A stretch of DNA of 53,506 nt from a virus (taxonomy: Duplodnaviria > Caudoviricetes). Positions 1,973 through 36,928 of this stretch are shown here, one piece after another (the stretch's first letter is position 1; each line of letters opens with the position of its first letter). The notes beneath the pieces were generated by a model. It saw only the letters and a program-made list of their open reading frames with translations, was not told the DNA's origin and made no database searches. The stretch spans positions 1 to 53,506 of the IMG/VR virus record IMGVR_UViG_3300044618_002464. One strand, given 5' to 3'. The translations under genes and the position numbers were made by a program.

Positions 1973-2638
1973 TTATTTACCTTTTAATTCTTCAATCTTA
2001 TCTTGTATTTCTTTCATTATTTGATATGGTTGAAAATTCTTTGTTAATGCTAAATTTTTATTATTAGAAATATAAGGTTTATCTTTTGTTATATTAGTTG
2101 GCACTGGTGGCACTGTAAATGGCACTGCTATTGTTGCACTTGACCCAGTTCCAGTCTGAACACCTGTGTGTACATGAGCATTCAATGCTGTTGATAATAT
2201 TCCTAAATATTCATACAAATCTAATATATACTGTAATAAATCACTTATAACTTTATTTGTACTTTCACCCATCATTTGTGCTTCTGCTTTATATTCACTT
2301 TTTGCTACTTGCAGATAAACTCCATCATTTCCTGTTTTATTATACCAATGTTCAGAAAAAACAATAGTCTCACCTTCTTTTATTGAAAAGTTTTTATCAT
2401 TAATAGAATTTAATATACCAAATACTTTAGAATCTGTTTGACCATGCTGAGAAATAATACATAATTTATTTTTAGTTGGTATTGAAATTATTCCATAATT
2501 ATTTAATATCTGTACTGAATTTGGATAACCTAAAGTATTAGATGTTGATAATTTTGCAATAGTAAATCCAGTTTTTTCATCAAAGTATGCAGAATTTAAT
2601 AAAGCTATCTTAACTAAACCATTAATACTTTTTTCCAT
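1973..2638 (-). CDS. Baseplate central spike (Mu gp45 / P2 gpV-like)
   Basis: N-terminal YGIISIP and EGETIVFS motifs; C-terminal HVHTGVQTGTGSS with the metal-binding HxH tip motif. Confidence 0.75.
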   Translation of the reverse strand: MEKSINGLVKIALLNSAYFDEKTGFTIAKLSTSNTLGYPNSVQILNNYGIISIPTKNKLCIISQHGQTDSKVFGILNSINDKNFSIKEGETIVFSEHWYNKTGNDGVYLQVAKSEYKAEAQMMGESTNKVISDLLQYILDLYEYLGILSTALNAHVHTGVQTGTGSSATIAVPFTVPPVPTNITKDKPYISNNKNLALTKNFQPYQIMKEIQDKIEELKGK

Positions 2639-4212
2639 TATGATAATGCCTTGTGTTTTGTAAAGTTTGCTATAGTTTTATAATTTGTTGTTTTATCATG
2701 TCGTCTATTGTTAGGTTTATTAGATGTTTGACCTGTTTCATTTTGTGAATTACTATCATTGTCTGCATCATCATCATTTACTTTATTTGGTATTAAACTT
2801 TCTAATGCTGACTCTCTAATATCAATCATTTCACAGAATGAAGGTGTTTTTAATTTATAACCATTATCTTTTATTAGGTTTATCTTATCTAAATTCAATG
2901 CAATATCTTCTGATACATTGTAATTCTTAACGAATGTACCGAAATTATCTTGTTCTCTAAAATTTATCTGCAATTGTGGTTTAACATATTGAGCTATTAA
3001 ACATGATGATATCATTTGTACAATTGCTGTAATATTTCTACCTAATAAATCTTTTTGAGTTTCACCTAATCCATAACTACCATGAGAAGACATGCCAGAT
3101 ATTTGGTTTGGATACAATAAGGCCATTAATATTTCATAACTGTTATTGTTTAATAAATCCACCATTTCACTTAAATTAGCTGTACTTTCTATTTTTTCAA
3201 TCCAAATAGATTTACCTAACTGACCCTGTAAAGCAATATAGTTGCTTCCTGCTCCATTGTCAAACATTCCGACTTTTTTCATTATTGCATCTATACTTTG
3301 CAATGGAGTTAATCCTGTTGTTGTATTTTTATCATTGTTTTCTACAATAAAAACAGGTAAAGTCGAACCTCTTAATCTAGCAGCGTTTAAAATTATTTTT
3401 TCTAATTGACATCTTCTTATATAAAGATCATAAACTGCTCTTAACATACTTCTGCCATATGGTGAAGTAAATCCATCTATACCTTTATATGCAAAATGCA
3501 ATGATTTGTTTAATGGTAAAATTACTTCACCTATTGGCTGAGCCCAAAAAATCCGTAATGGATATGGTAAATCGCCTCTTGGTGCATATGGATTTGGTGT
3601 TGACATATTATTGAAATACATATTAGCAGACAGTATGTTCGCATTTGCACCCCATAAAGCATTAAAATAATATTGTCTAATTCCATTTTCTGTTAACATT
3701 CCATGTGGATCAACTTCAAACATTATTGATGTTGGCGGTCTAGGTTGAATGTCTTTTATAATGGTGTATATACCTCGTTTTACTGTATATGTTTTTTCAC
3801 CGACATAAAATCCAGCCCATAATGCTGTTAACATTTCTCTTATAATATCTGTTAATGGTCTATCTAATGAATCAATAGCAAATTTAATAAACTCTTCATA
3901 TTTTTTATTTTTATGTTCATACTTTCCAATTTCATTTAATACTAAATTATTAATAATTGTTAAAGCGGCTATAATAGGTGCTTGAGTAGTTGCCATCTTC
4001 TGAAATTCTAATATACTAACAGTTGATGGGTTTATAATTAAATTAGATGGTATTAAAGTTTGATAAGGTACAGAAGTTCCAATTAAATGATCTTTATTTT
4101 TTCCAAACATTGCAGAATTTTTTAATGCCTGTGAAGTATCAAAATTATTATAAGATTTATCAAATAAATCAGCACCATTTGCTTTTAAAAGTGCATCTGT
4201 TATATTGTTCAT
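2638..4212 (-). CDS. Portal protein (DUF935 / Mu gp29-like)
   Basis: 524 aa; ALWAGFYVGE, SPYGRSMLRAVY, GSYGLGETQ and QYVKPQLQINF motifs typical of DUF935 portals. Confidence 0.85.
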   Translation of the reverse strand: MNNITDALLKANGADLFDKSYNNFDTSQALKNSAMFGKNKDHLIGTSVPYQTLIPSNLIINPSTVSILEFQKMATTQAPIIAALTIINNLVLNEIGKYEHKNKKYEEFIKFAIDSLDRPLTDIIREMLTALWAGFYVGEKTYTVKRGIYTIIKDIQPRPPTSIMFEVDPHGMLTENGIRQYYFNALWGANANILSANMYFNNMSTPNPYAPRGDLPYPLRIFWAQPIGEVILPLNKSLHFAYKGIDGFTSPYGRSMLRAVYDLYIRRCQLEKIILNAARLRGSTLPVFIVENNDKNTTTGLTPLQSIDAIMKKVGMFDNGAGSNYIALQGQLGKSIWIEKIESTANLSEMVDLLNNNSYEILMALLYPNQISGMSSHGSYGLGETQKDLLGRNITAIVQMISSCLIAQYVKPQLQINFREQDNFGTFVKNYNVSEDIALNLDKINLIKDNGYKLKTPSFCEMIDIRESALESLIPNKVNDDDADNDSNSQNETGQTSNKPNNRRHDKTTNYKTIANFTKHKALS

Positions 4213-8773: not shown

Positions 8774-10282
8774 TTACATATCATACCATTTTTTTACAGT
8801 ATTTTGTCTTTCTTCTGGTAATATTAATGCTTGTACTTCTGATAATGTATTTATCTGTGTACTAATCATATAAGCCAAAACATCAACTTGATCATCATGT
8901 TCTTTTGATTCACCATTCATTTTAACATGTTTGCCATCTTTTCTAAAACATTCTAATTCTTCAAAGAATTTGTTTACCCAATTACCAGAATCTGGTATCA
9001 TCACAAATTGATTCTTTATAAACATCAAACCATCATTTAATCTTAAATATTTATCTTTAACAGCTTTTAATGGTTGACATGGTATTCCCTTTCTTGGCAA
9101 CCTTTGTAATAAACCAGTTCCGCAACTTTTGTCTTCAATCCATATTCCGCGAGGTGGTGAAAATTGAATTTTATTGTCTAACTTACTTCTCCATTCATGC
9201 CATTTATCGATAATTAATTGTTCTAAATCTGGTTCTTCTAATTTTTCTCTTATCCAATCTATAATATACCATTTGTCATCAATATTAGATCGTCCCGCTA
9301 ATCCAATTACACTGTAATCATTTGATTCTTTAGTTTTTGATGCTCCATCAATAACAAAATATGTTTCTTTAAAAAATCCTGGTATTTGCATTTTTTCTGA
9401 CAGATTATATCTGGGAAAATACTCTCTATTAAGTATAATTCCAAAATCATCATAATCAATATTCCAGTTTCCGTATAACATTCTTGCTTTTAATACTGCA
9501 TTTTGTGCGTATAAATTTGCAAGATAATCTGGTGATTGTTGCACCAAAATCTGATTATCATAAACAGTTGAATTGATGAATGTAAAAGTTTTAATTGGAA
9601 TATTGTCAGGAATATCATATTGTCTTGCTTGTTCTCTAACTTCTTGTTCTGTATCACCCCAAACAAGCCTAGTTTCTAATGCTTCACCTATTCTGATAAA
9701 GTATCTAATTACACCACATCTTGATTCAATAGGTAATCCATCTTCATCTAAATACCAATCAATCATCATTCTAACCCATGAATTCTTTTTAGGATTGCAT
9801 GTTGCTCTTATGTATGGTTTAATTTTACCCATTGCTCTACCAGATGCACGATTTCTACTTACAAGAAACCAAAAAAAATCTTCATTAAACTGAGTTAACT
9901 CATCAAGACCAATAAAAGCCATCTGCCAACCTTGTTTATTTAACATTTTGGCTGGTTTATCCTGTGAAGAGAATAATATTCTTGCATTTGTTTTCTTGAA
10001 TTTCCAATCATACTTTGATGATCTGGGTGTCCCACCTACAATAGGAAATATTTCTTGAGATTGATCCCAAATTGCACCTGCACCAATTAAATCTTTAATT
10101 TCAGCACGAAAATAAGCACCAGTAAAATCAGGTACATGAATGTTTCTTGTTCCCTCTAATAACAATACAAAAGTTTTACCACCACCCATGGCACCGCCAT
10201 AAAATGCAATATCTGCATCTGTTGACATAAACATTTCTTGTTTGCCTGGCTGTGGTGATAATATCTTTCTTTGTGTGTTCAT
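8774..10282 (-). CDS. terL: Terminase large subunit
   Basis: PQPGKQ adenine motif, Walker A YGGAMGGGKT, Walker B GLDELTQF, TCNP, nuclease HDDQVD. Confidence 0.95.
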   Translation of the reverse strand: MNTQRKILSPQPGKQEMFMSTDADIAFYGGAMGGGKTFVLLLEGTRNIHVPDFTGAYFRAEIKDLIGAGAIWDQSQEIFPIVGGTPRSSKYDWKFKKTNARILFSSQDKPAKMLNKQGWQMAFIGLDELTQFNEDFFWFLVSRNRASGRAMGKIKPYIRATCNPKKNSWVRMMIDWYLDEDGLPIESRCGVIRYFIRIGEALETRLVWGDTEQEVREQARQYDIPDNIPIKTFTFINSTVYDNQILVQQSPDYLANLYAQNAVLKARMLYGNWNIDYDDFGIILNREYFPRYNLSEKMQIPGFFKETYFVIDGASKTKESNDYSVIGLAGRSNIDDKWYIIDWIREKLEEPDLEQLIIDKWHEWRSKLDNKIQFSPPRGIWIEDKSCGTGLLQRLPRKGIPCQPLKAVKDKYLRLNDGLMFIKNQFVMIPDSGNWVNKFFEELECFRKDGKHVKMNGESKEHDDQVDVLAYMISTQINTLSEVQALILPEERQNTVKKWYDM

Positions 10283-12094: not shown

Positions 12095-13135
12095 TTAAAT
12101 TTTTGATAACCATTGTAAATAAATTTGATGAGATATTTGGGCCATCATAACTGGTGGTACACTCATACCTAATAAATAATATGGCTGTACATTTCCAAAG
12201 TTATAATTTTGTGGGAATGAACTAGCTGTTATTAATTCCTGTGATAATAGCTTTCTAGGTGTTTTATAATGATAAAGTTTGATATCATTGGCTACAATTG
12301 TTGGTAATACTTTGTTTGGTGATACTTTACAATAATTGAAAAAACTGCCTGTTGCATGTGCATCTGAAAAATCTTTACCTGCCATTGTTTTAACCCACAG
12401 TTTCAGTAAAGTATCTGTGATATTTTTGTTGTTATTTTGTATTTCAATATCTTTATAATAAATTGGTTGACAATTAAAATTTAATTCAAGTTTAGGAAAG
12501 TTTAATTTTTTCTGTGAACAGATTATAAACACTCTTTCTCGGCGTTGTGGTAATCCCATTGTTGCACCATTTAACAAAAATACCTGTACATTGTAATCAA
12601 TTTCGTTTAACTTTTTAATTATTTCTGTCAGATATACTTGTGCATTACCAATTAATAAACCTTTTACATTTTCTGCAATAGCAACTTTTGGTTGCAAGAT
12701 TCTAACTGTTTCAATCCATTCAAAAAATAGGTCATCTAATTGTTGCTTTTTTTGACCTTCTTTAAATTGCTTTTCAATTCCCCATGCTTTTTCACGACTT
12801 CCGGCCATTGAGAATGTAGAACACGGCGGTGATCCATCTAATAAATCCAATTCAAATAATTCTGGGTATTGTTGTTTGTTTACTTGTTTGTTAAAGTCTC
12901 TGATATCTTGTACAAATAAATGCTTGGGATTGTGATTTTTTTTATAAATTTCTGCAATCTTTTTATCTAATTCAACACCACCAAGATGATCATATCCAGC
13001 TAATTTATATCCCATTGTACTGCCACCACCACAAACGAATGTCCCAAATACTTTTAAATTGTTTTTAGGTACAGCATTATATTGATCTGACAGTTGCCAC
13101 TTGTAAGCAAATAATGACGATTGATATTTTTTCAT
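12095..13135 (-). CDS. DNA (cytosine-5)-methyltransferase, orphan
   Basis: Motifs FVCGGG (I), GSPPC (IV), ENV (VI), QRRER (VIII), GMSVPP (X). Confidence 0.92.
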   Translation of the reverse strand: MKKYQSSLFAYKWQLSDQYNAVPKNNLKVFGTFVCGGGSTMGYKLAGYDHLGGVELDKKIAEIYKKNHNPKHLFVQDIRDFNKQVNKQQYPELFELDLLDGSPPCSTFSMAGSREKAWGIEKQFKEGQKKQQLDDLFFEWIETVRILQPKVAIAENVKGLLIGNAQVYLTEIIKKLNEIDYNVQVFLLNGATMGLPQRRERVFIICSQKKLNFPKLELNFNCQPIYYKDIEIQNNNKNITDTLLKLWVKTMAGKDFSDAHATGSFFNYCKVSPNKVLPTIVANDIKLYHYKTPRKLLSQELITASSFPQNYNFGNVQPYYLLGMSVPPVMMAQISHQIYLQWLSKI

Positions 13136-14029: not shown

Positions 14030-14070
14030 GTAAAATAAATTTGACTGATTGATTTAAAAAGCGATACAAT
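14030..14070 (+). promoter_or_regulatory. Early promoter repeat copy 1
   Basis: GTAAAATAAATTTGACT; -35 TTGACT 14041-46, 18-bp spacer, -10 TACAAT 14065-70. Confidence 0.75.
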
Positions 14071-15400: not shown

Positions 15401-16063
15401 ATGAATATTATTAATGAAAATATAAAAGAAAGTGAATTATTAAATAAAAAAAATAAAATAGATGGATTAAAACTATTATCTTTAATTTCTAATGATGTTA
15501 TAAAAGCCACTTTTTTCGATCCACAATATAGGGGATTATTGGATAAAATTAATTATGGCAATCATAAAAGAGAAGTTAGGAGAAAAAATTTACCACAAAT
15601 GTCCGAACAAATAATAATAAACTTTATAAAAGAAATTGATAGAGTTTTAATGCCATCTGGACATTTGTTTTTATGGATTGATAAATTTCAACTAACAGAA
15701 GGGTATCAACATTGGTTAAACAATACAAATCTAAACATTGTAGATTTAATTGTATGGGAAAAACATAAAATAGGTATGGGTTATCGCAGTAGAAATAAAT
15801 GTGAATTTTTACTTATTTTACAAAAAACACCTAAAAGAGTAAAAGGAATATGGACTATTCACAATATACCTAATGTTTGGAAAGAAAAGGTAGAAACAAA
15901 AGAACACCCACATTCAAAGCCTATTGAATTACAAACAAGATTAATAGAAGCCATTTCTAATGAAAATGATTTTATATTAGATCCAGCCATGGGTAGTGGC
16001 AGTGTATTAACAGCTTGTATACAAATTAAAAGAAATTTTATTGGAGGAGATATTAATGATTAA
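15401..16063 (+). CDS. DNA N6-adenine/N4-cytosine methyltransferase (beta class), orphan
   Basis: FFDPQY catalytic motif before HPHSKP and ILDPAMGSGS SAM-binding motif. Confidence 0.88.
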   Translation: MNIINENIKESELLNKKNKIDGLKLLSLISNDVIKATFFDPQYRGLLDKINYGNHKREVRRKNLPQMSEQIIINFIKEIDRVLMPSGHLFLWIDKFQLTEGYQHWLNNTNLNIVDLIVWEKHKIGMGYRSRNKCEFLLILQKTPKRVKGIWTIHNIPNVWKEKVETKEHPHSKPIELQTRLIEAISNENDFILDPAMGSGSVLTACIQIKRNFIGGDIND

Positions 16064-16605: not shown

Positions 16606-16636
16606 ATTTGACTAATTAAATGAATGGTGTTATTAT
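16596..16636 (+). promoter_or_regulatory. Early promoter repeat copy 2
   Basis: GGTAAAATAAATTTGACTAATTAAA; TTGACT 16608-13, 17-bp spacer, extended TGnTATTAT to 16636. Confidence 0.8.
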
Positions 16637-16679
16637 TTTTCAGTGATTGAGTTTAATAACCTTGAAAGGAAACAAAAAA

Positions 16680-17003
16680 ATGAAAAAAGAAAAAATGCTT
16701 TTAAAAGATTTCAGAACACAAGTAAAAGAATTGGCAATAAAATTCGGATACAAGAAAGAAGATATATCTGTTAAAGTTGAGCACCATAATTCAGTAAATG
16801 TACAAATCAGAAATTTAAAAGAATTATATGATGATCACTTTTCTAATTTTAGAAATGCAGTTAGAGAATTGGGTGGTGTTGGTAATGCTGGCGATGCAAT
16901 GATTGATTATTTTGATAATTACACTTGTGTTTGTAAAGATATATCTATGTACTGTTACAAATTCATTAGTGTTAGCTGTCATAGCAACAAAGATTTTTAT
17001 TAA
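16680..17003 (+). CDS. Early protein, possibly LPD29-like polyvalent-protein domain
   Basis: ISVKV...SVNVQI...DAMIDYFD resembles the LPD29 D-x-M-x-D-Y-F motif (recalled, not searched). Confidence 0.45.
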   Translation: MKKEKMLLKDFRTQVKELAIKFGYKKEDISVKVEHHNSVNVQIRNLKELYDDHFSNFRNAVRELGGVGNAGDAMIDYFDNYTCVCKDISMYCYKFISVSCHSNKDFY

Positions 17004-17011
17004 TATTTACA

Positions 17012-17062
17012 AGAAAAAAGCCCTCATCACAGGGCTCTTTAGTTTTATGTCATTTTTATAGG
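17012..17062 (-). ncRNA. Candidate cis-antisense sRNA to the 17074 gene leader
   Basis: Minus-strand TTGATT (17097-92), 17 bp, TATAAT (17074-69); hairpin AGCCCT/AGGGCT followed by a U-tract on the minus strand. Confidence 0.5.
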
Positions 17063-17073
17063 AAATTAATTAT

Positions 17074-17649
17074 ATGTCAACAATTCAAAATAATCAAATT
17101 AATTTATATTTTTTAGATATATTAAATCAGTTTGCAGATAACAAAGTAAGAAAAAGCTCAGCAATAAAGCAAATGTTATCAGTTATTGATTTATTAAAAG
17201 ATCATCAGAATTTTAAAAGTTTTGAAATCTTGAAAAGCAAAAAATCTTTTTATGAATTTGTTCACTATCCTGAATTAATTCAAAGTGTTTATCGTGAAAT
17301 CAGTATTTACCATACATTTTTTGATTCTTTTTTCTGCAGAGGTTTACCAGTTATTAAATTTGACTTCAAACATTCTGATCAAATATGTATTTTGTTTTAT
17401 AGTCAGTTTAGACAATCAAAAACATATTTTTTAGCAATATTTAATAAATCTTTAGATGCAACAGGTTTTTTGTCAATGAAAATAAAAGATATTGAATCAT
17501 CATTAACTACCAGATATTTACCACAATTTGAAAAGTTTTTATTAGATTCTGAATATCCTTTGAATGTTTCCAAAGAAAATCATAACAATGAAACAGCAAT
17601 GATTGATTCAAGTATATTGAATTTATTAAAATTGGATTCTGCATATTAA
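17074..17649 (+). CDS. Hypothetical protein
   Basis: 191 aa; ATAGGAAA RBS. Confidence 0.7.
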   Translation: MSTIQNNQINLYFLDILNQFADNKVRKSSAIKQMLSVIDLLKDHQNFKSFEILKSKKSFYEFVHYPELIQSVYREISIYHTFFDSFFCRGLPVIKFDFKHSDQICILFYSQFRQSKTYFLAIFNKSLDATGFLSMKIKDIESSLTTRYLPQFEKFLLDSEYPLNVSKENHNNETAMIDSSILNLLKLDSAY

Positions 17650-18452: not shown

Positions 18453-18494
18453 GGTAAAATAAATTTGACTAATTAAACCAAGAAACGATATTAT
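18453..18494 (+). promoter_or_regulatory. Early promoter repeat copy 3
   Basis: GGTAAAATAAATTTGACTAATTAAA; TTGACT 18465-70, 18-bp spacer, TATTAT 18489-94. Confidence 0.8.
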
Positions 18495-18536
18495 TTCTTA
18501 TGTGAATGTTTAATAAATCTTGAAAGGAAATAAAAA

Positions 18537-19604: not shown

Positions 19605-19898
19605 ATGTGGAAAAAAATCTATATTCAGACAAAAGATATTCATATGGCCACTGACAGAGCAGCATTAATAAAACTACCTAAAAAATCTATTTACAGGGAT
19701 TATAAATTTTGGTGGGGTGGTTCATTGATAATTAAAGATAAATTCAGTCATCAATGGATATTGAGCTATAAAGATGAATTTGATGTTAAGTTGATTAAAG
19801 ATAAAAATAAAGATGATTATTTAATGTTTAAAGCCAGTGAAATCATGTCTTTTTTTGATCATGTGATTCCGTATGGTAAAATAAATTTGACTAATTAA
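19605..19898 (+). CDS. Hypothetical protein
   Basis: 97 aa; its 3' end is encoded by promoter repeat 4. Confidence 0.7.
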   Translation: MWKKIYIQTKDIHMATDRAALIKLPKKSIYRDYKFWWGGSLIIKDKFSHQWILSYKDEFDVKLIKDKNKDDYLMFKASEIMSFFDHVIPYGKINLTN

Positions 19899-19916
19899 AA
19901 GATAATATGATAATAT
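19875..19916 (+). promoter_or_regulatory. Early promoter repeat copy 4
   Basis: GGTAAAATAAATTTGACTAATTAAA; TTGACT 19887-92, 18-bp spacer, TGnTAATAT to 19916. Confidence 0.8.
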
Positions 19917-19964
19917 TTCTTGTGTGAATGAGTGAATTTAATAACCTTGAAAGGAAACAACAAA

Positions 19965-20153
19965 ATGATCAAATATGAAGATGCTTATTTTTATTACAAC
20001 TTATTAACAACAAAAGCTAAAAAAATGTTCAAGTTTAAAGATGTTGCAAGAAAATGGGAATCTGAACAAATTGCATCTGTGATCTTTGATTTTGATTTTG
20101 ATATCAGCATGAAAAAATTTATCACAGGTTTGAATAACACAGCTCTTAATTAA
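19965..20153 (+). CDS. Hypothetical small early protein
   Basis: ATG 19965 after CTTGAAAGGAAACAA. Confidence 0.7.
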   Translation: MIKYEDAYFYYNLLTTKAKKMFKFKDVARKWESEQIASVIFDFDFDISMKKFITGLNNTALN

Positions 20154-20159
20154 TGAACA

Positions 20160-20193
20160 GGGTTTGTTAGTTTTCCCAAAAAACTAACTTTTT
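20160..20193 (+). terminator. Terminator-like hairpin with possible pseudoknot
   Basis: GTTAGTTTT/AAAACTAAC stem followed by TTTTT; upstream GGG can pair with loop CCC. Confidence 0.5.
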
Positions 20194-20217
20194 ATAAACT
20201 TTGAAAGGAAACATAAA

Positions 20218-20652
20218 ATGACACAAAAATTAGATTTAACAAAAGTAATTATTCCGTATATAAGAAAACGAGTGCCAGCATATGACACAACATCAATTTA
20301 TTATTCTTATATTCACAACAATTATACAGAAGCTAATTACATTAATTTTTATATTGGTGCTGAATTGATTAAAGATTTAAACATCACGATTGCAGATCGG
20401 TTTATGTTTGCACATGATGGAAGTAATAAAAACAAATGGCATTTAATCATTACAAAAAATCAAGGCGTTCAAGTTAAATTAAATAAAACAGAAAATGGCT
20501 TAGTTATTGTTACCAACCCATTCATTCATAAAAACACAAAAATGAATAAAATAGAATATGCAGAAATTTCAATTATAAACAACAAAAATCAAAGAGTTTT
20601 ATCTTTTGAAGTAAAAGATTGTGATAATGATTTAAAAAGAATTGAAGCATGA
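20218..20652 (+). CDS. Hypothetical protein
   Basis: 144 aa; RBS motif at 20201. Confidence 0.75.
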   Translation: MTQKLDLTKVIIPYIRKRVPAYDTTSIYYSYIHNNYTEANYINFYIGAELIKDLNITIADRFMFAHDGSNKNKWHLIITKNQGVQVKLNKTENGLVIVTNPFIHKNTKMNKIEYAEISIINNKNQRVLSFEVKDCDNDLKRIEA

Positions 20653-21512
20653 TTATTTCATTAAATTATATTTATCATCAATTGGCAAGATCAGATAAAA
20701 GATTTGAATCTAAATGTATTGCACATGAAACATTGATTAATCTTGATCTTTCATATTGTGAATTTGTTGATTGTACTTTTGATGATTTGTACATTGAAAG
20801 TTGCAATTTTCATTTAACAGAATTTATAAATTGTACTTTTAAAAACTCGAGAATTACTGAAAGCTGTGATTTTTTCAATACTGCTTTTAAAAATACGACT
20901 TTCATTGAATGTAATATTAAAGCTAACCTTTCTACAGCTTCATTTAAAGATGTTATTGCAGAAGATTCTGAAATATTGTCAACTGATGCTGATACTTTAG
21001 ATGAAACAGATAACATCATTCATATTGATACTACAATAAAATATACAGGACTTAGTGGCAAAACTGGTGCCGATGATGATGATGATGATGACAGTGAAGA
21101 TGATGAAAAAGAAAATTTAATCATAACTAAAAAAGCAATATTTCTTTTTAATAAATTAACAAGTGGCCAGTATATCAAAAATGCAACTTGTTTGTGGGAA
21201 CTGTCAGAAGATGAGCATCATAATTTAATAAAATGGTGTATAGAGTTTTCTAATTTTTGTATTATAGATTTTGATTCATGTTATGCAGTAGATTCAAGAA
21301 TCAATATATACATCATTGATAATGATCATTTAACAACTGTAGAGGGCCATAGATTACCAATCTATAAAATCAATGACAGATACAGCATATATATTGCTAT
21401 AAATTCAATGAACAAACATTTAACACTGTATAACAAATTGTATCAAGCATACACTGTTTATGATGGCTGGAATGATCATCAATTAAAAGAAATATTTTTA
21501 AAAACATTATAA
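20649..21512 (+). CDS. Pentapeptide-repeat protein with a poly-Asp tract
   Basis: Repeats LDLSY CEFVD CTFDD...CNFHL TEFIN CTFKN...ANLST ASFKD; DDDDDDDSEDDE. Confidence 0.8.
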   Translation: MIISLNYIYHQLARSDKRFESKCIAHETLINLDLSYCEFVDCTFDDLYIESCNFHLTEFINCTFKNSRITESCDFFNTAFKNTTFIECNIKANLSTASFKDVIAEDSEILSTDADTLDETDNIIHIDTTIKYTGLSGKTGADDDDDDDSEDDEKENLIITKKAIFLFNKLTSGQYIKNATCLWELSEDEHHNLIKWCIEFSNFCIIDFDSCYAVDSRINIYIIDNDHLTTVEGHRLPIYKINDRYSIYIAINSMNKHLTLYNKLYQAYTVYDGWNDHQLKEIFLKTL

Positions 21513-21523
21513 AAGGAATCAAG

Positions 21524-21823
21524 ATGAAACTAACCGGATTTGAACAAAATGCAGAAACAGTTTTAGATGTTACTGACGATTTTATTGCAAACATAAAAGA
21601 AATGAATTTTAATTTAGATATAAAAATTAAAAGGTTATCACTTAAATATTGGGGTATATTCTTTAGGGGTAAACAAACAATTTTTATTCATTGTTCACCA
21701 ATGTTAGTAATATCAGAATTAAATAAATTATTGACTAAAGAAATTAAATTTGTTGGTAGCTTTGATATAGAAAAAGTTGACAAAAAAGCAGAAGAGATTA
21801 AATGCAAGATAAAATATTATTAA
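21524..21823 (+). CDS. Hypothetical protein
   Basis: 99 aa; AAAAGGAA RBS. Confidence 0.7.
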   Translation: MKLTGFEQNAETVLDVTDDFIANIKEMNFNLDIKIKRLSLKYWGIFFRGKQTIFIHCSPMLVISELNKLLTKEIKFVGSFDIEKVDKKAEEIKCKIKYY

Positions 21824-21889
21824 AAGAAAAGACAGTTAAAAAATAACTGTCTTCTAGTGAAATTATTCTTGAAAGGAAACAAAAACACT
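21822..21889 (-). ncRNA. Candidate trans-acting anti-RBS sRNA (~68 nt)
   Basis: Promoter TTGTGT (21924-19), 17 bp, TATAAT (21901-896); UAGUG/CACUA stem presenting UUUUUGUUUCCUUUCAAG; 10-bp terminator stem 21829-21853 with a minus-strand U-tract. Confidence 0.65.
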
Positions 21890-21926
21890 AAAGATATTAT
21901 ATCTTATTTATAGGAAAAACACAAAT

Positions 21927-22211
21927 ATGATTACAAGCGAAAAGCCAACTCAGAAAAAAGATTATATGGATTTTTTGACTTTGCTATTAATGAACAATGA
22001 AAAAGTACCAAAAAAACTTATTAATGTTTTTTGTTATATTTTTGAAAGAGGCCATTTAAACACAACTTTGTTATTTCTGCAGAAGCAGATTAATATTTCA
22101 AAGCCAACTTTATTAGAATGTTTAAATCTTTTGGAAAGGTATAGAATCATAACTAAAAAAGCAAAATGTGGCACAAAAAATGGAACAGTCATTGAATACA
22201 TAAAAAAATAA
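21927..22211 (+). CDS. Winged helix-turn-helix DNA-binding protein
   Basis: LQKQINISKPTLLECLNLLERYRIITK wHTH pattern. Confidence 0.7.
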   Translation: MITSEKPTQKKDYMDFLTLLLMNNEKVPKKLINVFCYIFERGHLNTTLLFLQKQINISKPTLLECLNLLERYRIITKKAKCGTKNGTVIEYIKK

Positions 22212-22220
22212 TAAATATTT

Positions 22221-22250
22221 TTGACTAATTAAAAAAGAATACGATAATAT
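22221..22250 (+). promoter_or_regulatory. Early promoter repeat copy 5 (partial)
   Basis: TTGACTAATTAAA, 18-bp spacer, CGATAATAT; lacks the upstream GTAAAATAAAT arm. Confidence 0.7.
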
Positions 22251-22276
22251 TGTAAAGTGAGGGTTTAAATTACAAA

Positions 22277-22438
22277 ATGAATAAAAACGATAACAACATA
22301 AATATATTTGAATTAATAATTGAAGGAGGGATACAGCAACTAATAGAACAAACACAAAAAAATAAACAAGATGATTATAACTGGGTTATAGATTTTAACA
22401 ACATAGAAAAGGAAACAAAAAATGAAAAAAAAGAATAG
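22277..22438 (+). CDS. Hypothetical 53-aa protein, not in the ORF track
   Basis: MNKNDNNINIFELIIEGGIQQLIEQ...; first ORF after promoter 5, GAGGG upstream. Confidence 0.45.
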   Translation: MNKNDNNINIFELIIEGGIQQLIEQTQKNKQDDYNWVIDFNNIEKETKNEKKE

Positions 22439-22844
22439 TTTAATAGACACATCAGAATTAAAAGATTGTGAAGTAACTGCAAAAAAAAATCTTATATTGT
22501 CATTATTTGAAAAAAAATTGATAAAAGAAACTAAAGTCAATTTAGCAGTGCATGATTTCAATTTAAATGAAGTAACAAATGATGAATTTTTTAAAGCAAT
22601 TGGTGGCATATTTAAAGATAAAAGAAAGGGTTTGAAATTATCAATTAGAACTGTTTCAGAATTATTAAATATACATTCCGGTTGCATTATTAAATTTGAA
22701 CAAGGGAAAACCAAAATAAATATTTTAAATTTACTATCATTGATGAATTTGTTAAATATTTCTTTGAATATTTCTTTAAACACATCAACACTAACTGATT
22801 CTATTAATAAAGTAGAAACGGTTTTTGAAGCTGAAAACAATTAA
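22422..22844 (+). CDS. XRE-family HTH transcriptional regulator
   Basis: IGGIFKDKRKGLKLSIRTVSELLNIHSGCIIKFEQGK. Confidence 0.8.
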   Translation: MKKKNSLIDTSELKDCEVTAKKNLILSLFEKKLIKETKVNLAVHDFNLNEVTNDEFFKAIGGIFKDKRKGLKLSIRTVSELLNIHSGCIIKFEQGKTKINILNLLSLMNLLNISLNISLNTSTLTDSINKVETVFEAENN

Positions 22845-22877
22845 TATAATTTTTAAACTTTGAAAGGAAACAGAAAA

Positions 22878-23198
22878 ATGAAAACACAAAAACAATTAAA
22901 AAATGAATTTATTGGATTTACTGCATTAGCATTAATAATTGAAGTTGATATTGCATTAAGTGTCATTTATTATGCTCATCACAATCCTTTTATATATTAT
23001 TACTTTTTATATCATAAAAATGTAGTTTCAATGTTATGTAATTTTTTAATCATAAGTGCAGTAATTTATACAACAATAAAAGTTACAAATAAAATGGCTT
23101 ATTTTATGTTTAAATTTGAAAAAATAATATTCAAAAAATACAAATCCATTCAAAAAAGTTTTAATAAAAATATTATTCATGCTCATTTAAGAGGTTAA
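22878..23198 (+). CDS. Two-TM membrane protein
   Basis: ATG 22878 after TTGAAAGGAAACAGAAA; two hydrophobic segments. Confidence 0.7.
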   Translation: MKTQKQLKNEFIGFTALALIIEVDIALSVIYYAHHNPFIYYYFLYHKNVVSMLCNFLIISAVIYTTIKVTNKMAYFMFKFEKIIFKKYKSIQKSFNKNIIHAHLRG

Positions 23199-23206
23199 AG
23201 TCAATC

Positions 23207-23317
23207 ATGGTAGAAGATAAATTTGGAAGTTTAGAATTATTGCTGTTAATTGCAATAGTATTTTTTATAATAAAATTATTCACAAAAAAGGAAAACGATA
23301 AAAATGAAAGTAAATAA
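23207..23317 (+). CDS. Small single-TM peptide (36 aa), not in the ORF track
   Basis: MVEDKFGSLELLLLIAIVFFIIKLFTKK...; GAGG upstream; fills the gap. Confidence 0.5.
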   Translation: MVEDKFGSLELLLLIAIVFFIIKLFTKKENDKNESK

Positions 23318-24413
23318 AGGTACATACTTTGAACATGTTGATTTGATTTCTGGGTCTGACACCTGGAAAGATTTCAGAAAAGATAAAATGGGTGCAACTG
23401 ATCTTTCTCTATCAGTAACAGTAAATGTTAAATCTGCTGTAAAAACCAAAGTATCTGATAATTTTGGTGGAAACCGGTTTACATTATGGGGGCAGTATAG
23501 AGAGCCAATAATCAGAGAATATTTAAATGATTATTTGGATATATCAACATCATCAACAGTTATATCTCATTTAAACAATGAAAAAATCATTGCCAGTTTA
23601 GATGGTATTGATGATATAAAAAAATACATTCTTGAAATAAAAACTACAAAATATTTATTGATGGGAAACAATGAAAATCAATTGATTATGTTGCAAGACT
23701 ATATTAAAAAGTGGGCTCAACAAATCAGTCATCAATATTATATTTTAAATGATTCTGAGTATAAAGTGTTACTGGCCATTGAATGTTATCAAGATAACAG
23801 TGATTTTGCTACTTCATTTAAACCATTAGAGTTATTAGTTTTTGAATGCAATATAAATAATGGTTGCTTCAATGTTCAATTAAAGCACAGGTTTGAAATA
23901 GATGAAACACATGACAATAACGGATACTATCCTGAAGTAATTTCAACTAATTTAATTGAAAAACCTTTTAATGAAATTAATAAAAATTATTCAGTAATGT
24001 TAAAAGAAGTTTGGAATGAAATCTGTCAAGAGTTTTTAGACCTATTATCACAAAGAACAAATTCATCAGAACAGATTAATGAAATAGATGAGTTATTAGC
24101 AAGTTACAGCAATTACACTAATATGATTAATGAGTTTCAAGAAAAATGTGATGAGATAAAACTTCAATTACAAAAAAAATTCCTGTCAGAACACAAAAAA
24201 ACATATTTTAGTAAAGTTGGTTCAATTGAAGTAAAAATCAGAAAAACACCAGTAACAGAAAAAAAATTAGTTGATTTATTAAACAATCAAGGTGTTTTAT
24301 TGAATTCATTGAACGAGTCTTATTATGAAAGAAAGTTGAATATTAAAAAAGTTTTAGAGGATTTTAAAATAGAACAGCCAGTAACAGAAACATTTAACAT
24401 TGAAACATTTTAA
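23304..24413 (+). CDS. YqaJ / lambda-exonuclease family recombination nuclease
   Basis: W...R...MGATD, WGQYREP, ASLDG, LEIKT, QISHQ motifs. Confidence 0.85.
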   Translation: MKVNKGTYFEHVDLISGSDTWKDFRKDKMGATDLSLSVTVNVKSAVKTKVSDNFGGNRFTLWGQYREPIIREYLNDYLDISTSSTVISHLNNEKIIASLDGIDDIKKYILEIKTTKYLLMGNNENQLIMLQDYIKKWAQQISHQYYILNDSEYKVLLAIECYQDNSDFATSFKPLELLVFECNINNGCFNVQLKHRFEIDETHDNNGYYPEVISTNLIEKPFNEINKNYSVMLKEVWNEICQEFLDLLSQRTNSSEQINEIDELLASYSNYTNMINEFQEKCDEIKLQLQKKFLSEHKKTYFSKVGSIEVKIRKTPVTEKKLVDLLNNQGVLLNSLNESYYERKLNIKKVLEDFKIEQPVTETFNIETF

Positions 24414-25283: not shown

Positions 25284-25535
25284 ATGTCAAAAACTTTAAA
25301 AGAATATCAATTATCTTATATTAAAAAGTTGAAATCTGAGTTATCAGAGTTATATCAAAAAAAAACTTTAAATGGTAAAGCTGTTGGGTATGCAGAATTA
25401 ATACACTTTATCACCAATAGAGAACATAATTTAAAAAGTCAAATTATGAGTTTACCAATATCTAATGCAGAAATTATGTATAACTCAATTATTAAAAACT
25501 TAAAAAGAAATGAAAATGACACAATGGCAAAGTAA
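25284..25535 (+). CDS. Hypothetical protein
   Basis: ATG 25284 after AGGGGG. Confidence 0.6.
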   Translation: MSKTLKEYQLSYIKKLKSELSELYQKKTLNGKAVGYAELIHFITNREHNLKSQIMSLPISNAEIMYNSIIKNLKRNENDTMAK

Positions 25536-26253
25536 ATTTATGAGTCCAAGCAAAATTGATATATTTTATCAATTTAAAAATAATGAATATGAGTGGTATT
25601 TTGGACCTCATGCTCATGGTGAAAAATGGACTGATGAATTATTCATAAAAAAAGTATTGGGAATCGGTGCAAAGTATGGTTATCAGGTTCATGCAGGGAC
25701 TGCTATTCATAAAGCCATTGAAAAGCATAATCTATTAAAAGGAAAGATAGGAACACAAACAACTCCAATAAACGAATGGGAAATTAAATTGTGTATTGAT
25801 CCAATTAATATAAATATTCCAAATGAAGACACCGAAAAATTCATAAAAGGCATTATAGGTGGAATATTAATCAATGGTAAGTATGATGCAAAAGATCACG
25901 AAAAAATACATGATATAAAAACAACATCAAAGATCGATCTTGATTCTTATAAAAACAGTTATCAATGGAAAATGTATCTTGTTATGACCGGATTAAAAAG
26001 ATTTGTTTATGATATTTTTCAAGTAAGATTTGATGAAAAAAAACCATATGAAAAAGATGCAAACGGCCATAAGATTTTAAACAGAAAATTAGTTGAAATT
26101 GTTAACTATGAAAGATTGGAATTAGATTTTTATAATGGATTAGATGTTGAATGTCATCAGTTTGTTGCTGAATTCAACGATTACTTGATTTCTAACCTCA
26201 ACTTGATCAAAGACATTGCAAGACAAAATAATGTTCAAATTAAAGGTTTATGA
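25510..26253 (+). CDS. PD-(D/E)XK nuclease superfamily protein
   Basis: SPSKI, GTAIHKAIE, GKYDA...IHDIKTT, SYQWKMY. Confidence 0.8.
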   Translation: MKMTQWQSKFMSPSKIDIFYQFKNNEYEWYFGPHAHGEKWTDELFIKKVLGIGAKYGYQVHAGTAIHKAIEKHNLLKGKIGTQTTPINEWEIKLCIDPININIPNEDTEKFIKGIIGGILINGKYDAKDHEKIHDIKTTSKIDLDSYKNSYQWKMYLVMTGLKRFVYDIFQVRFDEKKPYEKDANGHKILNRKLVEIVNYERLELDFYNGLDVECHQFVAEFNDYLISNLNLIKDIARQNNVQIKGL

Positions 26254-26384
26254 TGAAAATTAAAACAGAATCATATAAAAACGAAAAATATTACAAACAA
26301 AGAATAAAATACTTAATAGCATTAATTATTATTTTTGTTGTTTTATTAGTTGTCAATAATATTATTAATTTTTATATGTTTTAA
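26250..26384 (+). CDS. Small single-TM peptide (44 aa), not in the ORF track
   Basis: MMKIKTESYKNEKYYKQRIKYLIALIIIFVVLLVVNNIINFYMF; ATGA overlap and AAAGG RBS. Confidence 0.5.
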   Translation: MMKIKTESYKNEKYYKQRIKYLIALIIIFVVLLVVNNIINFYMF

Positions 26385-26415
26385 TTCTGTGGGATTCTAC
26401 GGAATTAAAAATAAT

Positions 26416-26460
26416 AAAAGAAAAATCCCATATGAAAATATGGGATTAAAAGACACAGCA
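26416..26460 (-). ncRNA. Candidate countertranscript antisense to the initiator leader
   Basis: TTGATT (26494-89), 17 bp, TGtTATGAT (to 26466); hairpin AATCCCATAT/ATATGGGATT followed by a minus-strand U-tract. Confidence 0.55.
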
Positions 26461-26473
26461 AAAGGATCATAAC

Positions 26474-27475
26474 ATGGGAAAACAAGAAAATCAATTGACA
26501 AAAAAAAGAGAATCTATAGTTTTTTATTTATCTTTTTATAATTCTGTAAAAAGAAGACCAAAAAAAATAAAATTAGCTATTTATGAAGCAATTTTTGAAT
26601 ATTCTTTTAATTTTGAATTACCTGATTTTTCAGAAGATAGTGAAGAGTATTCAATTTGGAATTTAATCAAGCCACAGCTTGACGCAAACATGAAAAAGTT
26701 TTTAAATGGTTGTCAAGAAAAGACTAAGCAAGACGGAAGCAAAGCAGAAGCAAACGACAAGCAAGAGATAAGCGAAACAGAAGCAAAGCAGAAGCAAACA
26801 ACAAGCAAGAGTGAAGCTAATGATAATGATAATGATAATGATAATGATAATGATAATGATAATGATAATGATAATGATAATGATAAACCAAAAAAAGAGA
26901 CGATGTCTCAATTTGAGTGTAAAAAAATGATTTATGAATTTAACGATTTAAATGAAGCAGAAAAACAATCGTTATGCAATTGGATTGATCACAAGTATGA
27001 GAATAAAAAAGAAAAATATAAAGAACGAGGATTGAAAAATATTTTAAATCAATGTTTAGAAGAATCTAAAACTAATAGAGATATCTGTTATGTTATTGAG
27101 AAATCTATCAATGGTGGAAAAGATGGCCTTGGTTGGAGTGGGATAGGATTTGATCATGTAAAGTTTGTTGCAAAAAGCGGTTTGAATGCAGATATACAAG
27201 ACATGAAAAAACAGAAGTGTAGAATAATTTTGTTGAATCAATGTCATGGATTGAATTATACCGATGCTAGTAATAAACTGAATAAGTTTAAAGATGGCGT
27301 TTATGATCCAAAATTTAACCCATTAGATAAAATAGAAGATATGATTACAAAAGCAGAATGTGAAAAGTATAATATAAAATACCCAACTCAAAGCAATTTA
27401 AAGTTATTTGGCAATCAGTTTATGAATAATTTATTAAGTTCTGGATTTAATGAAAAGGATTTTAAAGATGAATAA
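26474..27475 (+). CDS. Replication initiator (DUF6291-type N-terminus)
   Basis: ESIVFYLSFY...IYEAIFEY...LIKPQLDAN...NG, low-complexity linker with (ND)n, then a helical C-terminal domain. Confidence 0.8.
   Translation: MGKQENQLTKKRESIVFYLSFYNSVKRRPKKIKLAIYEAIFEYSFNFELPDFSEDSEEYSIWNLIKPQLDANMKKFLNGCQEKTKQDGSKAEANDKQEISETEAKQKQTTSKSEANDNDNDNDNDNDNDNDNDNDNDKPKKETMSQFECKKMIYEFNDLNEAEKQSLCNWIDHKYENKKEKYKERGLKNILNQCLEESKTNRDICYVIEKSINGGKDGLGWSGIGFDHVKFVAKSGLNADIQDMKKQKCRIILLNQCHGLNYTDASNKLNKFKDGVYDPKFNPLDKIEDMITKAECEKYNIKYPTQSNLKLFGNQFMNNLLSSGFNEKDFKDE
26726..26824 (+). repeat. Nine 11-bp iteron-like repeats (AAGCAAANNNN), probable origin
   Basis: AAGC at 26726, 737, 748, 759, 770, 781, 792, 803 and 814; exact 11-bp phasing. 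Confidence 0.8.
26821..26886 (+). repeat. (TGATAA)11 perfect microsatellite
   Basis: Counted directly; encodes Asn-Asp repeats. Confidence 0.95.
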
Positions 27476-30595: not shown

Positions 30596-30865
30596 TTATA
30601 ACAAATTATATTCCTGTATGCTTTTAACATGTATTAAATTATATGCAGAATAGTTCATTGTAGCATTTATTAATATCATTGAACCAGAAACAATCACATG
30701 ATTATCTTTTTTCAATAATTCTATCCCTGGACAATCTAAAGGGCATTGCAATTTAAATCTTTGTTTTAAATTATGTATTAATGCAGATTCATAATAATTT
30801 TTATTATATGGTTTAATAAAATCTAATGTGATGATTCCTGATATTTCTGTTTTATTTATTTCCAT
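30596..30865 (-). CDS. Hypothetical protein, possibly OB-fold-like (lone reverse gene in the early arm)
   Basis: 89 aa; INKTEISGII...LKKDNHVIVSGSM...IHVKSIQ recalls SSB/PriB OB folds. Confidence 0.5.
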   Translation of the reverse strand: MEINKTEISGIITLDFIKPYNKNYYESALIHNLKQRFKLQCPLDCPGIELLKKDNHVIVSGSMILINATMNYSAYNLIHVKSIQEYNLL

Positions 30866-30888
30866 TTTTAGTAAATAAGTTTAATTAG

Positions 30889-30982
30889 TAGAAAATAGGT
30901 AGGATTAATAGAATTTTAAGGAGTATGGTGTTTTTTTAATCCTACCTATTTGTTTGTTAAGTTCAGCTCTATGAACCCAACT
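30889..30982 (-). ncRNA. Candidate sRNA or leader with an anti-SD loop
   Basis: TTGACA (31016-11), 16 bp, TGgTATAAT (to 30989); 16-bp stem 30893-30951 enclosing CACCAUACUCCUU. Confidence 0.55.
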
Positions 30983-31111
30983 GAAATAATTATACCACAA
31001 AAAATAAAAGTGTCAAAAAAAAACTTTTATTTTATTATGTTATACGATATAATTTTTCATGGTGATCAATTGTCATCATAATTTTCACAGTTCAAAAAGA
31101 AAGGAAAAGTC

Positions 31112-36055: not shown

Positions 36056-36084
36056 ATTATAATAACTTATTGCATTTTTTGCAA
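36056..36084 (-). promoter_or_regulatory. Sigma70-type promoter for the membrane-gene pair
   Basis: TTGCAA (36084-79), 17 bp, TATAAT (36061-56). Confidence 0.6.
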
Positions 36085-36814: not shown

Positions 36815-36928
36815 AAAAATTTCCTTTTAAATTAATTGAAAAAAACAATTATATAATCTATAATTGATTTGCTACAAAGTGTATTCTAGTAATTACTCGT
36901 TAATTCTTTATATATTTTGTAGCATACT

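Follow-up and report, generated by a model that had tools for sequence, protein, structure and literature searches.

The virus record IMGVR_UViG_3300044618_002464 (Duplodnaviria; Caudoviricetes), which we analyzed over its full 53,506 nucleotides (nt) and refer to as the window, carries in its early arm a 103-nt spacer (positions 21822–21924) that appears to hold an early leader and a copy of the phage's early ribosome-binding site (RBS) motif without the gene to which they would belong. Our best-supported statement about this 'orphan' copy is that it is, as judged from its sequence, a mosaic or fragment of the phage's own promoter-leader-RBS cassette; probably it was left by recombination among repeated cassettes. 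The orphan now lies within what would be a short minus-strand unit, that is, a promoter-like site followed by the antisense of the motif (the 'anti-motif') and an intrinsic-terminator hairpin whose U-tract is found on the minus strand only. The explanation that we favor, to which we give somewhat less than an even chance, is a small antisense RNA, transcribed from this strand, that pairs with the motif in plus-strand RNAs; the original prediction for this spacer had gone further, with a phage small RNA (sRNA) that silences many early genes by pairing with their shared extended RBS.

The 18-mer CTTGAAAGGAAACAAAAA is present exactly at 21868–21885 (plus strand; the minus-strand reading is the anti-motif). 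When three or fewer mismatches are allowed, 15 copies of the 18-mer are found in the window (0.47 expected), and none of 100 shuffles reaches 15. An ATG follows 14 of these copies, located 0–2 nt downstream or overlapping the last bases of the motif; the sole exception is the copy at 21868. The core of the motif, AAAGGAAAC (a 7-nt Shine-Dalgarno (SD)-type sequence, then an A-rich spacer), occurs 14 times genome-wide: 13 occurrences have an ATG 4–7 nt downstream, and the remaining one is the orphan core at 21872, where the next 16 nt contain none of ATG, GTG, and TTG. We therefore confirm that the orphan, as originally described, is the only copy without a start codon behind it (one of 15 copies of the 18-mer, one of 14 of the core) and that the observation is real and non-random. 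A small open reading frame (ORF) behind the orphan motif was considered and rejected, with no usual start codon at 21886–21890; the orphan was also rejected as one half of a split RBS for the downstream gene at 21927 because that gene has its own SD (the orphan SD is 41 nt upstream of the ATG of gene 21927).

The general SD of this phage is AAAGGA, which is used by the late genes, too; the early form, GAAAGGA, fits a 16S tail of CCUUUC (the tail as given in a separate original note on the motif). Conservation extends past the SD: a C is found at motif position 13 in 11 of 14 copies (background 0.10), TT is found at positions 2–3, and the positions immediately upstream of the 18-mer have A in 13 and C in seven of 14 copies. 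Where this conservation lies outside paralogy, its reader could be the ribosome, a protein, or an RNA. The proposal that the motif is conserved as the target address of an RNA did not gain independent support, given the SD-type core, the paralogous cassettes, and a list of pairings that follows automatically from the motif (vide infra).

The paralogy is that of four near-identical full cassettes on the plus strand, each with promoter, leader, and RBS (starts at 14041, 16608, 18465, and 19887), together with a partial cassette at 22221. The longest motif identities are those of these four cassettes, so part of the long identity is paralogy; the copy in the 16608 cassette (16608–16682) is identical to the orphan at 18 of 18 positions. 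The orphan has cassette-like sequence on both flanks. On the upstream side, a leader-like stretch (21850–21867, plus strand) resembles the leader of the 19887 cassette, with AGTGAAATTA aligned to AGTGAATTTA of that leader at nine of 10 positions (counted by eye) and at a similar offset from the motif. On the downstream side, a cassette-like −10/start box, AAAGATATTATATCTTAT (21890–21907, plus strand), is identical at 16 of 18 positions to 18484–18501 in the 18465 cassette; this is its single match in the genome with two or fewer mismatches, and with three or fewer mismatches there are four matches (1.14 expected). The order of these parts is permuted, that is, the leader and motif are followed only then by the −10/start box; the neighboring partial cassette at 22221 has a promoter and lacks the standard leader and the motif. 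A decayed cassette had been named in advance as the case that would speak against the sRNA; the cassette-like sequence on both flanks bears this out, but only in part.

Two observations on the cassettes and their surroundings are recorded here. An 8-nt direct repeat, AAAAACAC (21881–21888 and 21915–21922), brackets 26 nt that include a palindrome and the −10 boxes; the pair resembles the trace that an insertion would leave in the interval from the orphan motif to gene 21927, with a chance estimate of ∼0.2, that is, not rare. In two lake runs, one contig each matches 19873–19968 (the 19887 cassette) with ∼10 substitutions and 4–6 gaps; these contigs represent either an additional copy of the cassette in this phage or the cassette of a relative not yet sampled.

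The intrinsic-terminator hairpin (21827–21855, minus strand) has 12 pairs including one G-U pair and is followed by a U-rich tail (21826–21815); it is listed by the terminator scan on the minus strand only, with the tail CTTTTAATAA (0.0 expected in shuffles of a 301-nt region). When the same hairpin is read on the plus strand, only two of the 8 nt that follow it are T, and six of the 8 nt that precede it are A. The plus-strand terminators of the early arm (17019, 17665, 19037, and 20166) have their own T-tracts, so the hairpin at 21827–21855 is built differently from them; a terminator on the minus strand, as an sRNA gene would need, is present. The predicted fold of the candidate RNA, a UAGUG/CACUA stem plus the terminator, has an energy of −19.9 kcal/mol (z-score −5.7). 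Its 5′ hairpin (predicted at 21855–21890, minus strand) places the anti-SD core CCUUUCAA in an 8-nt loop with an energy of −5.9 kcal/mol (z-score −3.3; one of 200 shuffles is equal or better), compared with −3.2 kcal/mol (z-score −1.0) for the same stretch read on the plus strand. The antisense sequences of the 14 other motif copies have energies of 0 to −1.7 kcal/mol, so that only the antisense of the orphan folds. The stem and terminator expected from the original prediction are thus reproduced, but the anti-motif would not be displayed wholly in the open: an inner helix of six pairs closes the 8-nt loop, and the outer stem has four pairs if the start is at 21889. Also present in the candidate RNA is a 22-codon frame that opens with GTG and closes with TAA (21820–21888, minus strand; VFLFPFKNNFTRRQLFFNCLFF); it is hydrophobic, has no RBS, and is probably a by-product of T-rich sequence.

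The promoter-like site of the unit, TTGTGT-17-TATAAT (21896–21924, minus strand), has its −35 hexamer at 21924–21919, its −10 hexamer at 21901–21896, and a predicted start at ∼21889; the layout of promoter-like site, anti-motif, and terminator with a minus-only U-tract is therefore present as described. The pattern TTGnnn-N16–18-TATAAT is found at 13 sites in the genome. Three of these are located in spacers just before real minus-strand genes (TTGCAA-17 at 36061, TTGTAG-18 at 36853, and TTGACA-16 at 30994), so that on the minus strand the style of this phage is to combine a perfect −10 with a weak −35. A perfect 13-bp palindrome, AGATAT-T-ATATCT (21892–21904), occurs once in the genome and contains the −10-like hexamers of both strands; from its sequence, it is possibly an operator.

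Two further spacers of the early arm have parallel minus-strand units. In the 17.0-kb unit (17005–17097, minus strand), TTGATT-17-TATAAT lies over the start codon of gene 17074 and is followed, after ∼25 nt, by a hairpin (17036–17019) and U-tract; the predicted RNA (∼55 nt) would be antisense to the 5′ untranslated region (UTR) of gene 17074 and to part of its SD. This hairpin, with TTTTTTCTT, is a two-way terminator that also ends the plus-strand gene at 16680–17003. In the 26.4-kb unit (26412–26494, minus strand), originally described as a countertranscript, TTGATT-17-TGtTATGAT lies over the start of gene 26474 and is followed by a minus-only terminator (26447–26424); an RNA that starts at the usual 6–8 nt from the −10 is predicted to begin just past the anti-SD CCUUUU and to span the part of the gene 26474 leader that precedes the SD, with the SD itself excluded. 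The U-tracts of the 26.4-kb unit (TTTTCTTTTATTA) and the 21.8-kb unit that contains the orphan (TTTTCTTTTAATA) are nearly alike. A TTG-type promoter-like site lies 18–40 nt upstream of three of the four minus-oriented terminator-like hairpins of the early arm; with 24 such sites in 21 kb, ∼0.09 would be expected per 80-nt window (p ∼0.003 by our own arithmetic, post hoc). The three-unit pattern and the strand-specific hairpin somewhat strengthen the function proposed for the 21.8-kb unit. A further region, 30866–31016 (minus strand), had been claimed as a second anti-SD sRNA; it is more simply described as the structured 5′ UTR of a minus-strand ORF of 89 amino acids (30596–30865): the region lies between a near-consensus promoter-like site, TTGACA-16-TGgTATAAT, and the ATG at 30865, and the ORF has no visible SD of its own.

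For the 21.8-kb unit, the mechanism that we propose is as follows. RNA polymerase would initiate near 21889 from TTGTGT-17-TATAAT, or from a more distant upstream site, and the minus-only terminator (21855–21827) would release it to give a product of ∼68 nt (21889–21822) with the exact antisense of the motif in its 5′ part; CCUUUCAA, an imitation of the 16S anti-SD, would be displayed in the hairpin loop. Because the hairpin has no U-tract on the plus strand, plus-strand transcription is expected to continue across it towards gene 21927, and every message made in this way would pair with the RNA in cis. In trans, the RNA could pair with the motif-bearing start regions and block ribosome binding. 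Whichever minus-strand promoter fires, every transcript that ends at this terminator would carry the anti-motif just before it. We also count for this explanation that the 18-mer has remained intact (18 of 18 positions) despite the absent start codon. The winged-helix-like neighbor (gp21927, vide infra) and the palindrome over the −10 hexamers of both strands make a protein-controlled switch conceivable.

The pairings listed in the original prediction are real when they are calculated: for 19 of the 83 start regions, 18 of them in the early arm, the predicted duplex with the 36-nt 5′ part of the candidate has an energy of −15 to −24.5 kcal/mol, whereas shuffled seeds (n = 100) reach −15 kcal/mol with 2.9 start regions on average and with 16 at most. 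However, the antisense sequences of other motif-bearing start regions bind up to 26 other start regions, that is, any antisense copy of the motif gives the same list, so the pairing is not independent evidence for an RNA. Further observations weigh on the same side. The −35 hexamer of the orphan site, TTGTGT, matches TTGACA at only three of six positions, so the site falls below the threshold of the consensus scan and is absent from its list. Promoter-like sites are not enriched in the early arm (125 compared with 143.8 in shuffles), and genome-wide, a promoter-like site is found 10–90 nt upstream of a terminator-like hairpin for three of nine hairpins on each strand, with ∼2 of nine expected. 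Opposite the minus-strand TATAAT, the plus strand has a box, GATATTATATC, that is similar to the cassette −10 and lies inside the palindrome; a plus-strand promoter-like site, TTGAAA-18-GATATT (21869–21898, with the TTGAAA of the orphan motif as its −35), overlaps the minus-strand site and is as good. Searches of phage records, IMG/VR, JGI metagenomes, and the protein collection turned up no relatives, and Rfam has no match in the window at the gathering score.

Several of these observations are readily accommodated if the spacer is a silent scar of cassette shuffling, with a minus-strand RNA, if any, that has no function; both the promoter-like site and the direction of the U-tract would then have arisen by chance in AT-rich DNA. 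We regard this as a serious possibility, although one on which we would not settle. The permuted cassette-like sequence on both flanks of the motif is what a scar would leave, and the 22221 cassette, which has the promoter and lacks the standard leader and motif, is its complementary partial; the order of hairpin and then motif is also found at 20166–20217, there with a gene behind it, the promoter-like sites are at chance level, and shuffling of promoter-early stem-loop (PeSL) cassettes is documented in the sections of PMC2839356 and PMC4122927 that concern it. Yet a scar leaves four features unexplained: the minus-only U-tract of the hairpin, the TTG-type promoter-like site upstream of all three such spacer hairpins of the early arm, the hairpin that forms around this motif copy alone, and the perfect 18-mer beside diverged flanks.

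Compatible with a scar, and in our view unlikely, is a reading in which the spacer is the plus-strand control region of gene 21927, with TTGAAA as the −35, the cassette-like box as the −10, and the palindrome as an operator for the gene's own product; the motif would have no role at the level of RNA. TTGAAA-18-GATATT is on the scan list (nine of 12 positions), the −10/start box is identical to that of the 18465 cassette at 16 of 18 positions, the palindrome is unique in the genome, and gp21927 may resemble a small HTH_36/MarR-type protein (a lead only). However, the cassette −10 (TAnnAT) is located 17–18 nt from its −35 and the corresponding TATTAT in the spacer is at 20 nt (our own count), the minus-only terminator is left unexplained, and the single-sequence structure model of gp21927 is poor (predicted local distance difference test (pLDDT) score 65.2), so that DNA binding is putative. 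Still less probable is that the terminator insulates, stopping longer antisense transcripts from 21990–21961, 22401–22374, or 26356–26328, with the anti-motif as their last stretch and without specific targets. The minus-strand promoter-like sites upstream do score better than the orphan site (10 of 12 positions at 21990 and 22401, 11 of 12 at 26356), and antisense-oriented terminators account for 9% of the mapped terminators in Pseudomonas phages, according to the part of PMC10914365 that deals with them; however, those upstream sites are inside genes or at chance density, and such transcripts would still carry the anti-motif beside the terminator, so pairing is not avoided.

The closest known systems are small phage RNAs. 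As described in the relevant passages of PMC12197685, c4 (P1 and P7) and sar (P22) have loops that are complementary to the region around the RBS of a message of their own phage and block its translation. The candidate is predicted to be of the same kind, that is, a small phage-encoded RNA complementary to its phage's own RBS; unlike c4, which acts on one message (ant), it has a target that is common to up to 19 start regions. The c4 RNA is processed from a transcript of the same strand. Plasmid-type countertranscripts and cis-antisense leader RNAs are short; their promoter lies over the start region of the gene they control, and they end at their own terminator in its leader. The 17.0-kb and 26.4-kb units fit this layout best. 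The candidate of the 21.8-kb unit (21889–21822) differs from a cis-antisense countertranscript in that it misses the SD of gene 21927 (21912–21915) and overlaps only the leader-like stretch upstream.

In its logic, one factor that reads a sequence shared by many start regions, the candidate would resemble the T4 endoribonuclease RegB and repressor RegA, which recognize a short sequence common to many early start regions and act in the shutoff of these messages at the transition from early to later expression (in the passages of PMC3014915 concerned), with the difference that the factor would be an RNA instead of a protein; a family matching RegA or RegB is absent from the Pfam scans of 50 proteins, in which Pfam was not checked for models of the two. 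The bacterial cuckoo (CcsR-type) sRNAs display a pyrimidine-rich copy of the anti-SD in hairpin loops (as set out in part of PMC4615179); they have 2–4 hairpins and the loop sequence CCUCCUCCC, whereas the candidate has a single weak hairpin with CCUUUCAA, and its extended complementarity amounts to 18 nt. PeSL cassettes of T4-type phages are repeated sigma-70-type early promoters among ORFan genes that serve as recombination points (corresponding sections of PMC2839356 and PMC4122927). The early arm of the window, with four full and one partial sigma-70-type early promoter cassettes in an ORFan-rich region, is similar; unlike PeSL cassettes, those described here include leader and RBS and have no stem-loop of their own, and none of the hairpins (17019, 17665, 19037, 20166, and 21829) adjoins a full-cassette promoter (14041, 16608, 18465, and 19887). 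By analogy, PeSL-type shuffling would account for the origin of the orphan.

Phage proteins that read start-region motifs and antisense RNAs against single genes (c4 and sar) are thus already known; within the texts that the literature searches covered, none describes a phage RNA that targets an RBS common to a set of early genes. The noncoding RNAs of PAK_P3 were considered as anti-RBS elements and dropped ('ribosome binding', 'RBS', and 'Shine' are absent from PMC4933390). The full extension of the favored explanation is a regulon-wide switch in which the ∼68-nt RNA pairs with the extended RBS of ∼19 early genes and shuts down the early arm in a graded way; the RNA would be the former countertranscript of one cassette copy that lost its cis gene and became a free-standing mimic of the 16S tail, with the winged-helix protein controlling its promoter via the palindrome. 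We consider this chain, taken as a whole, rather unlikely. If true, an RNA would here do what the RegA and RegB proteins do in T4, and the locus would illustrate how a cis-antisense RNA, once the element that it opposes is repeated, becomes a multi-target regulator; the route to such a regulator would be simple, because an antisense RNA to a repeated leader has multiple targets from the start. Should the spacer prove to be no more than a scar, it would nonetheless document PeSL-like cassette shuffling, the RBS included, in a lineage without known relatives.

No comparison against the collections searched turned up a relative. A megablast of 20500–23500 against phage records gave no matches, and no related loci were found in viral contigs via gp21927, gp20649, or the large terminase; tblastn with the large terminase matched 2339 records, all with <60% identity (27–32% among the matches listed), and the nearest Erf has 36% identity over 58% of the query. 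The exact 17-mer of the motif occurs in 103 viral stretches, none of which has blastn similarity to the window (among the 80 loci listed, one match apiece). Searches with cassette patterns gave no matches in one case and a single chance match, in a contig of 56% G+C, in another; in metagenome contigs they gave five matches, all unrelated by blastn and tblastx, and a 22-mer specific for the orphan gave none. Below the gathering score, Rfam has seven matches in 21600–22100 (E-values 1.8–9.3), with c4 (RF01695) not among them. In the contigs of four DNA runs, one record spans 21805–22012 with zero differences and another spans 21607–21874 with one difference, and no variants are listed inside 21822–21924; with strains this nearly identical and coverage this thin, the comparison is uninformative about selection.

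The genes on both sides of the spacer are read from the plus strand. The upstream gene (21524–21823; 99 amino acids, no assigned function) has its stop 3 nt before the A-tract and hairpin. The downstream gene (21927–22211; 94 amino acids) has its own, weaker RBS, ATAGGAAAAACACAAAT, with the SD at 21912–21915. Its product, gp21927, has no match in Pfam and no homologue in the protein collection save itself; its structural look-alikes in the Atlas are of the HTH_36/MarR type (template-modeling scores 0.67–0.74, a lead only), and a small DNA-binding protein of the winged-helix kind is its probable identity.

The window is a complete virus record, with its first 127 nt repeated at the far end (terminal repeats) and a G+C content of ∼25%; the DNA of this uncultured phage is found in lake-water and aquatic metagenomes (14 runs, with no RNA run listed among them). 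The packaging, head, and tail genes are on the minus strand in both flanks (e.g., the terminase at 8774–10282 and the portal at 2638–4212). The plus-strand arm (14.1–35.1 kb) contains ∼45 genes, mostly ORFans; most of the early proteins are without a family in the Pfam scans, and the family matches are Erf-like, RecE-like, HTH_3, N6/N4 methylase, RusA, and DUF6291. The 50 proteins in these scans do not include an integrase, and no tRNAs were found in the window; the phage is virulent-looking.

Three observations from elsewhere in the genome are added. A minus-strand ORF of 166 codons (22340–22840), antisense to the HTH_3 gene (22422–22844), is long for DNA of 23% G+C; it was rejected as a real gene because it is probably just an F-rich, low-complexity antisense frame. 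The early arm's top promoter match, TTGACA-17-AATAAT (26328–26356, minus strand; 11 of 12 positions), is located in a spacer, has no minus-strand gene behind it, and points antisense into the gene at 25510–26253. The phage encodes two DNA methylases, one of the C-5 cytosine type (12095–13135, minus strand) and one of the N6/N4 type (15401–16063, plus strand).

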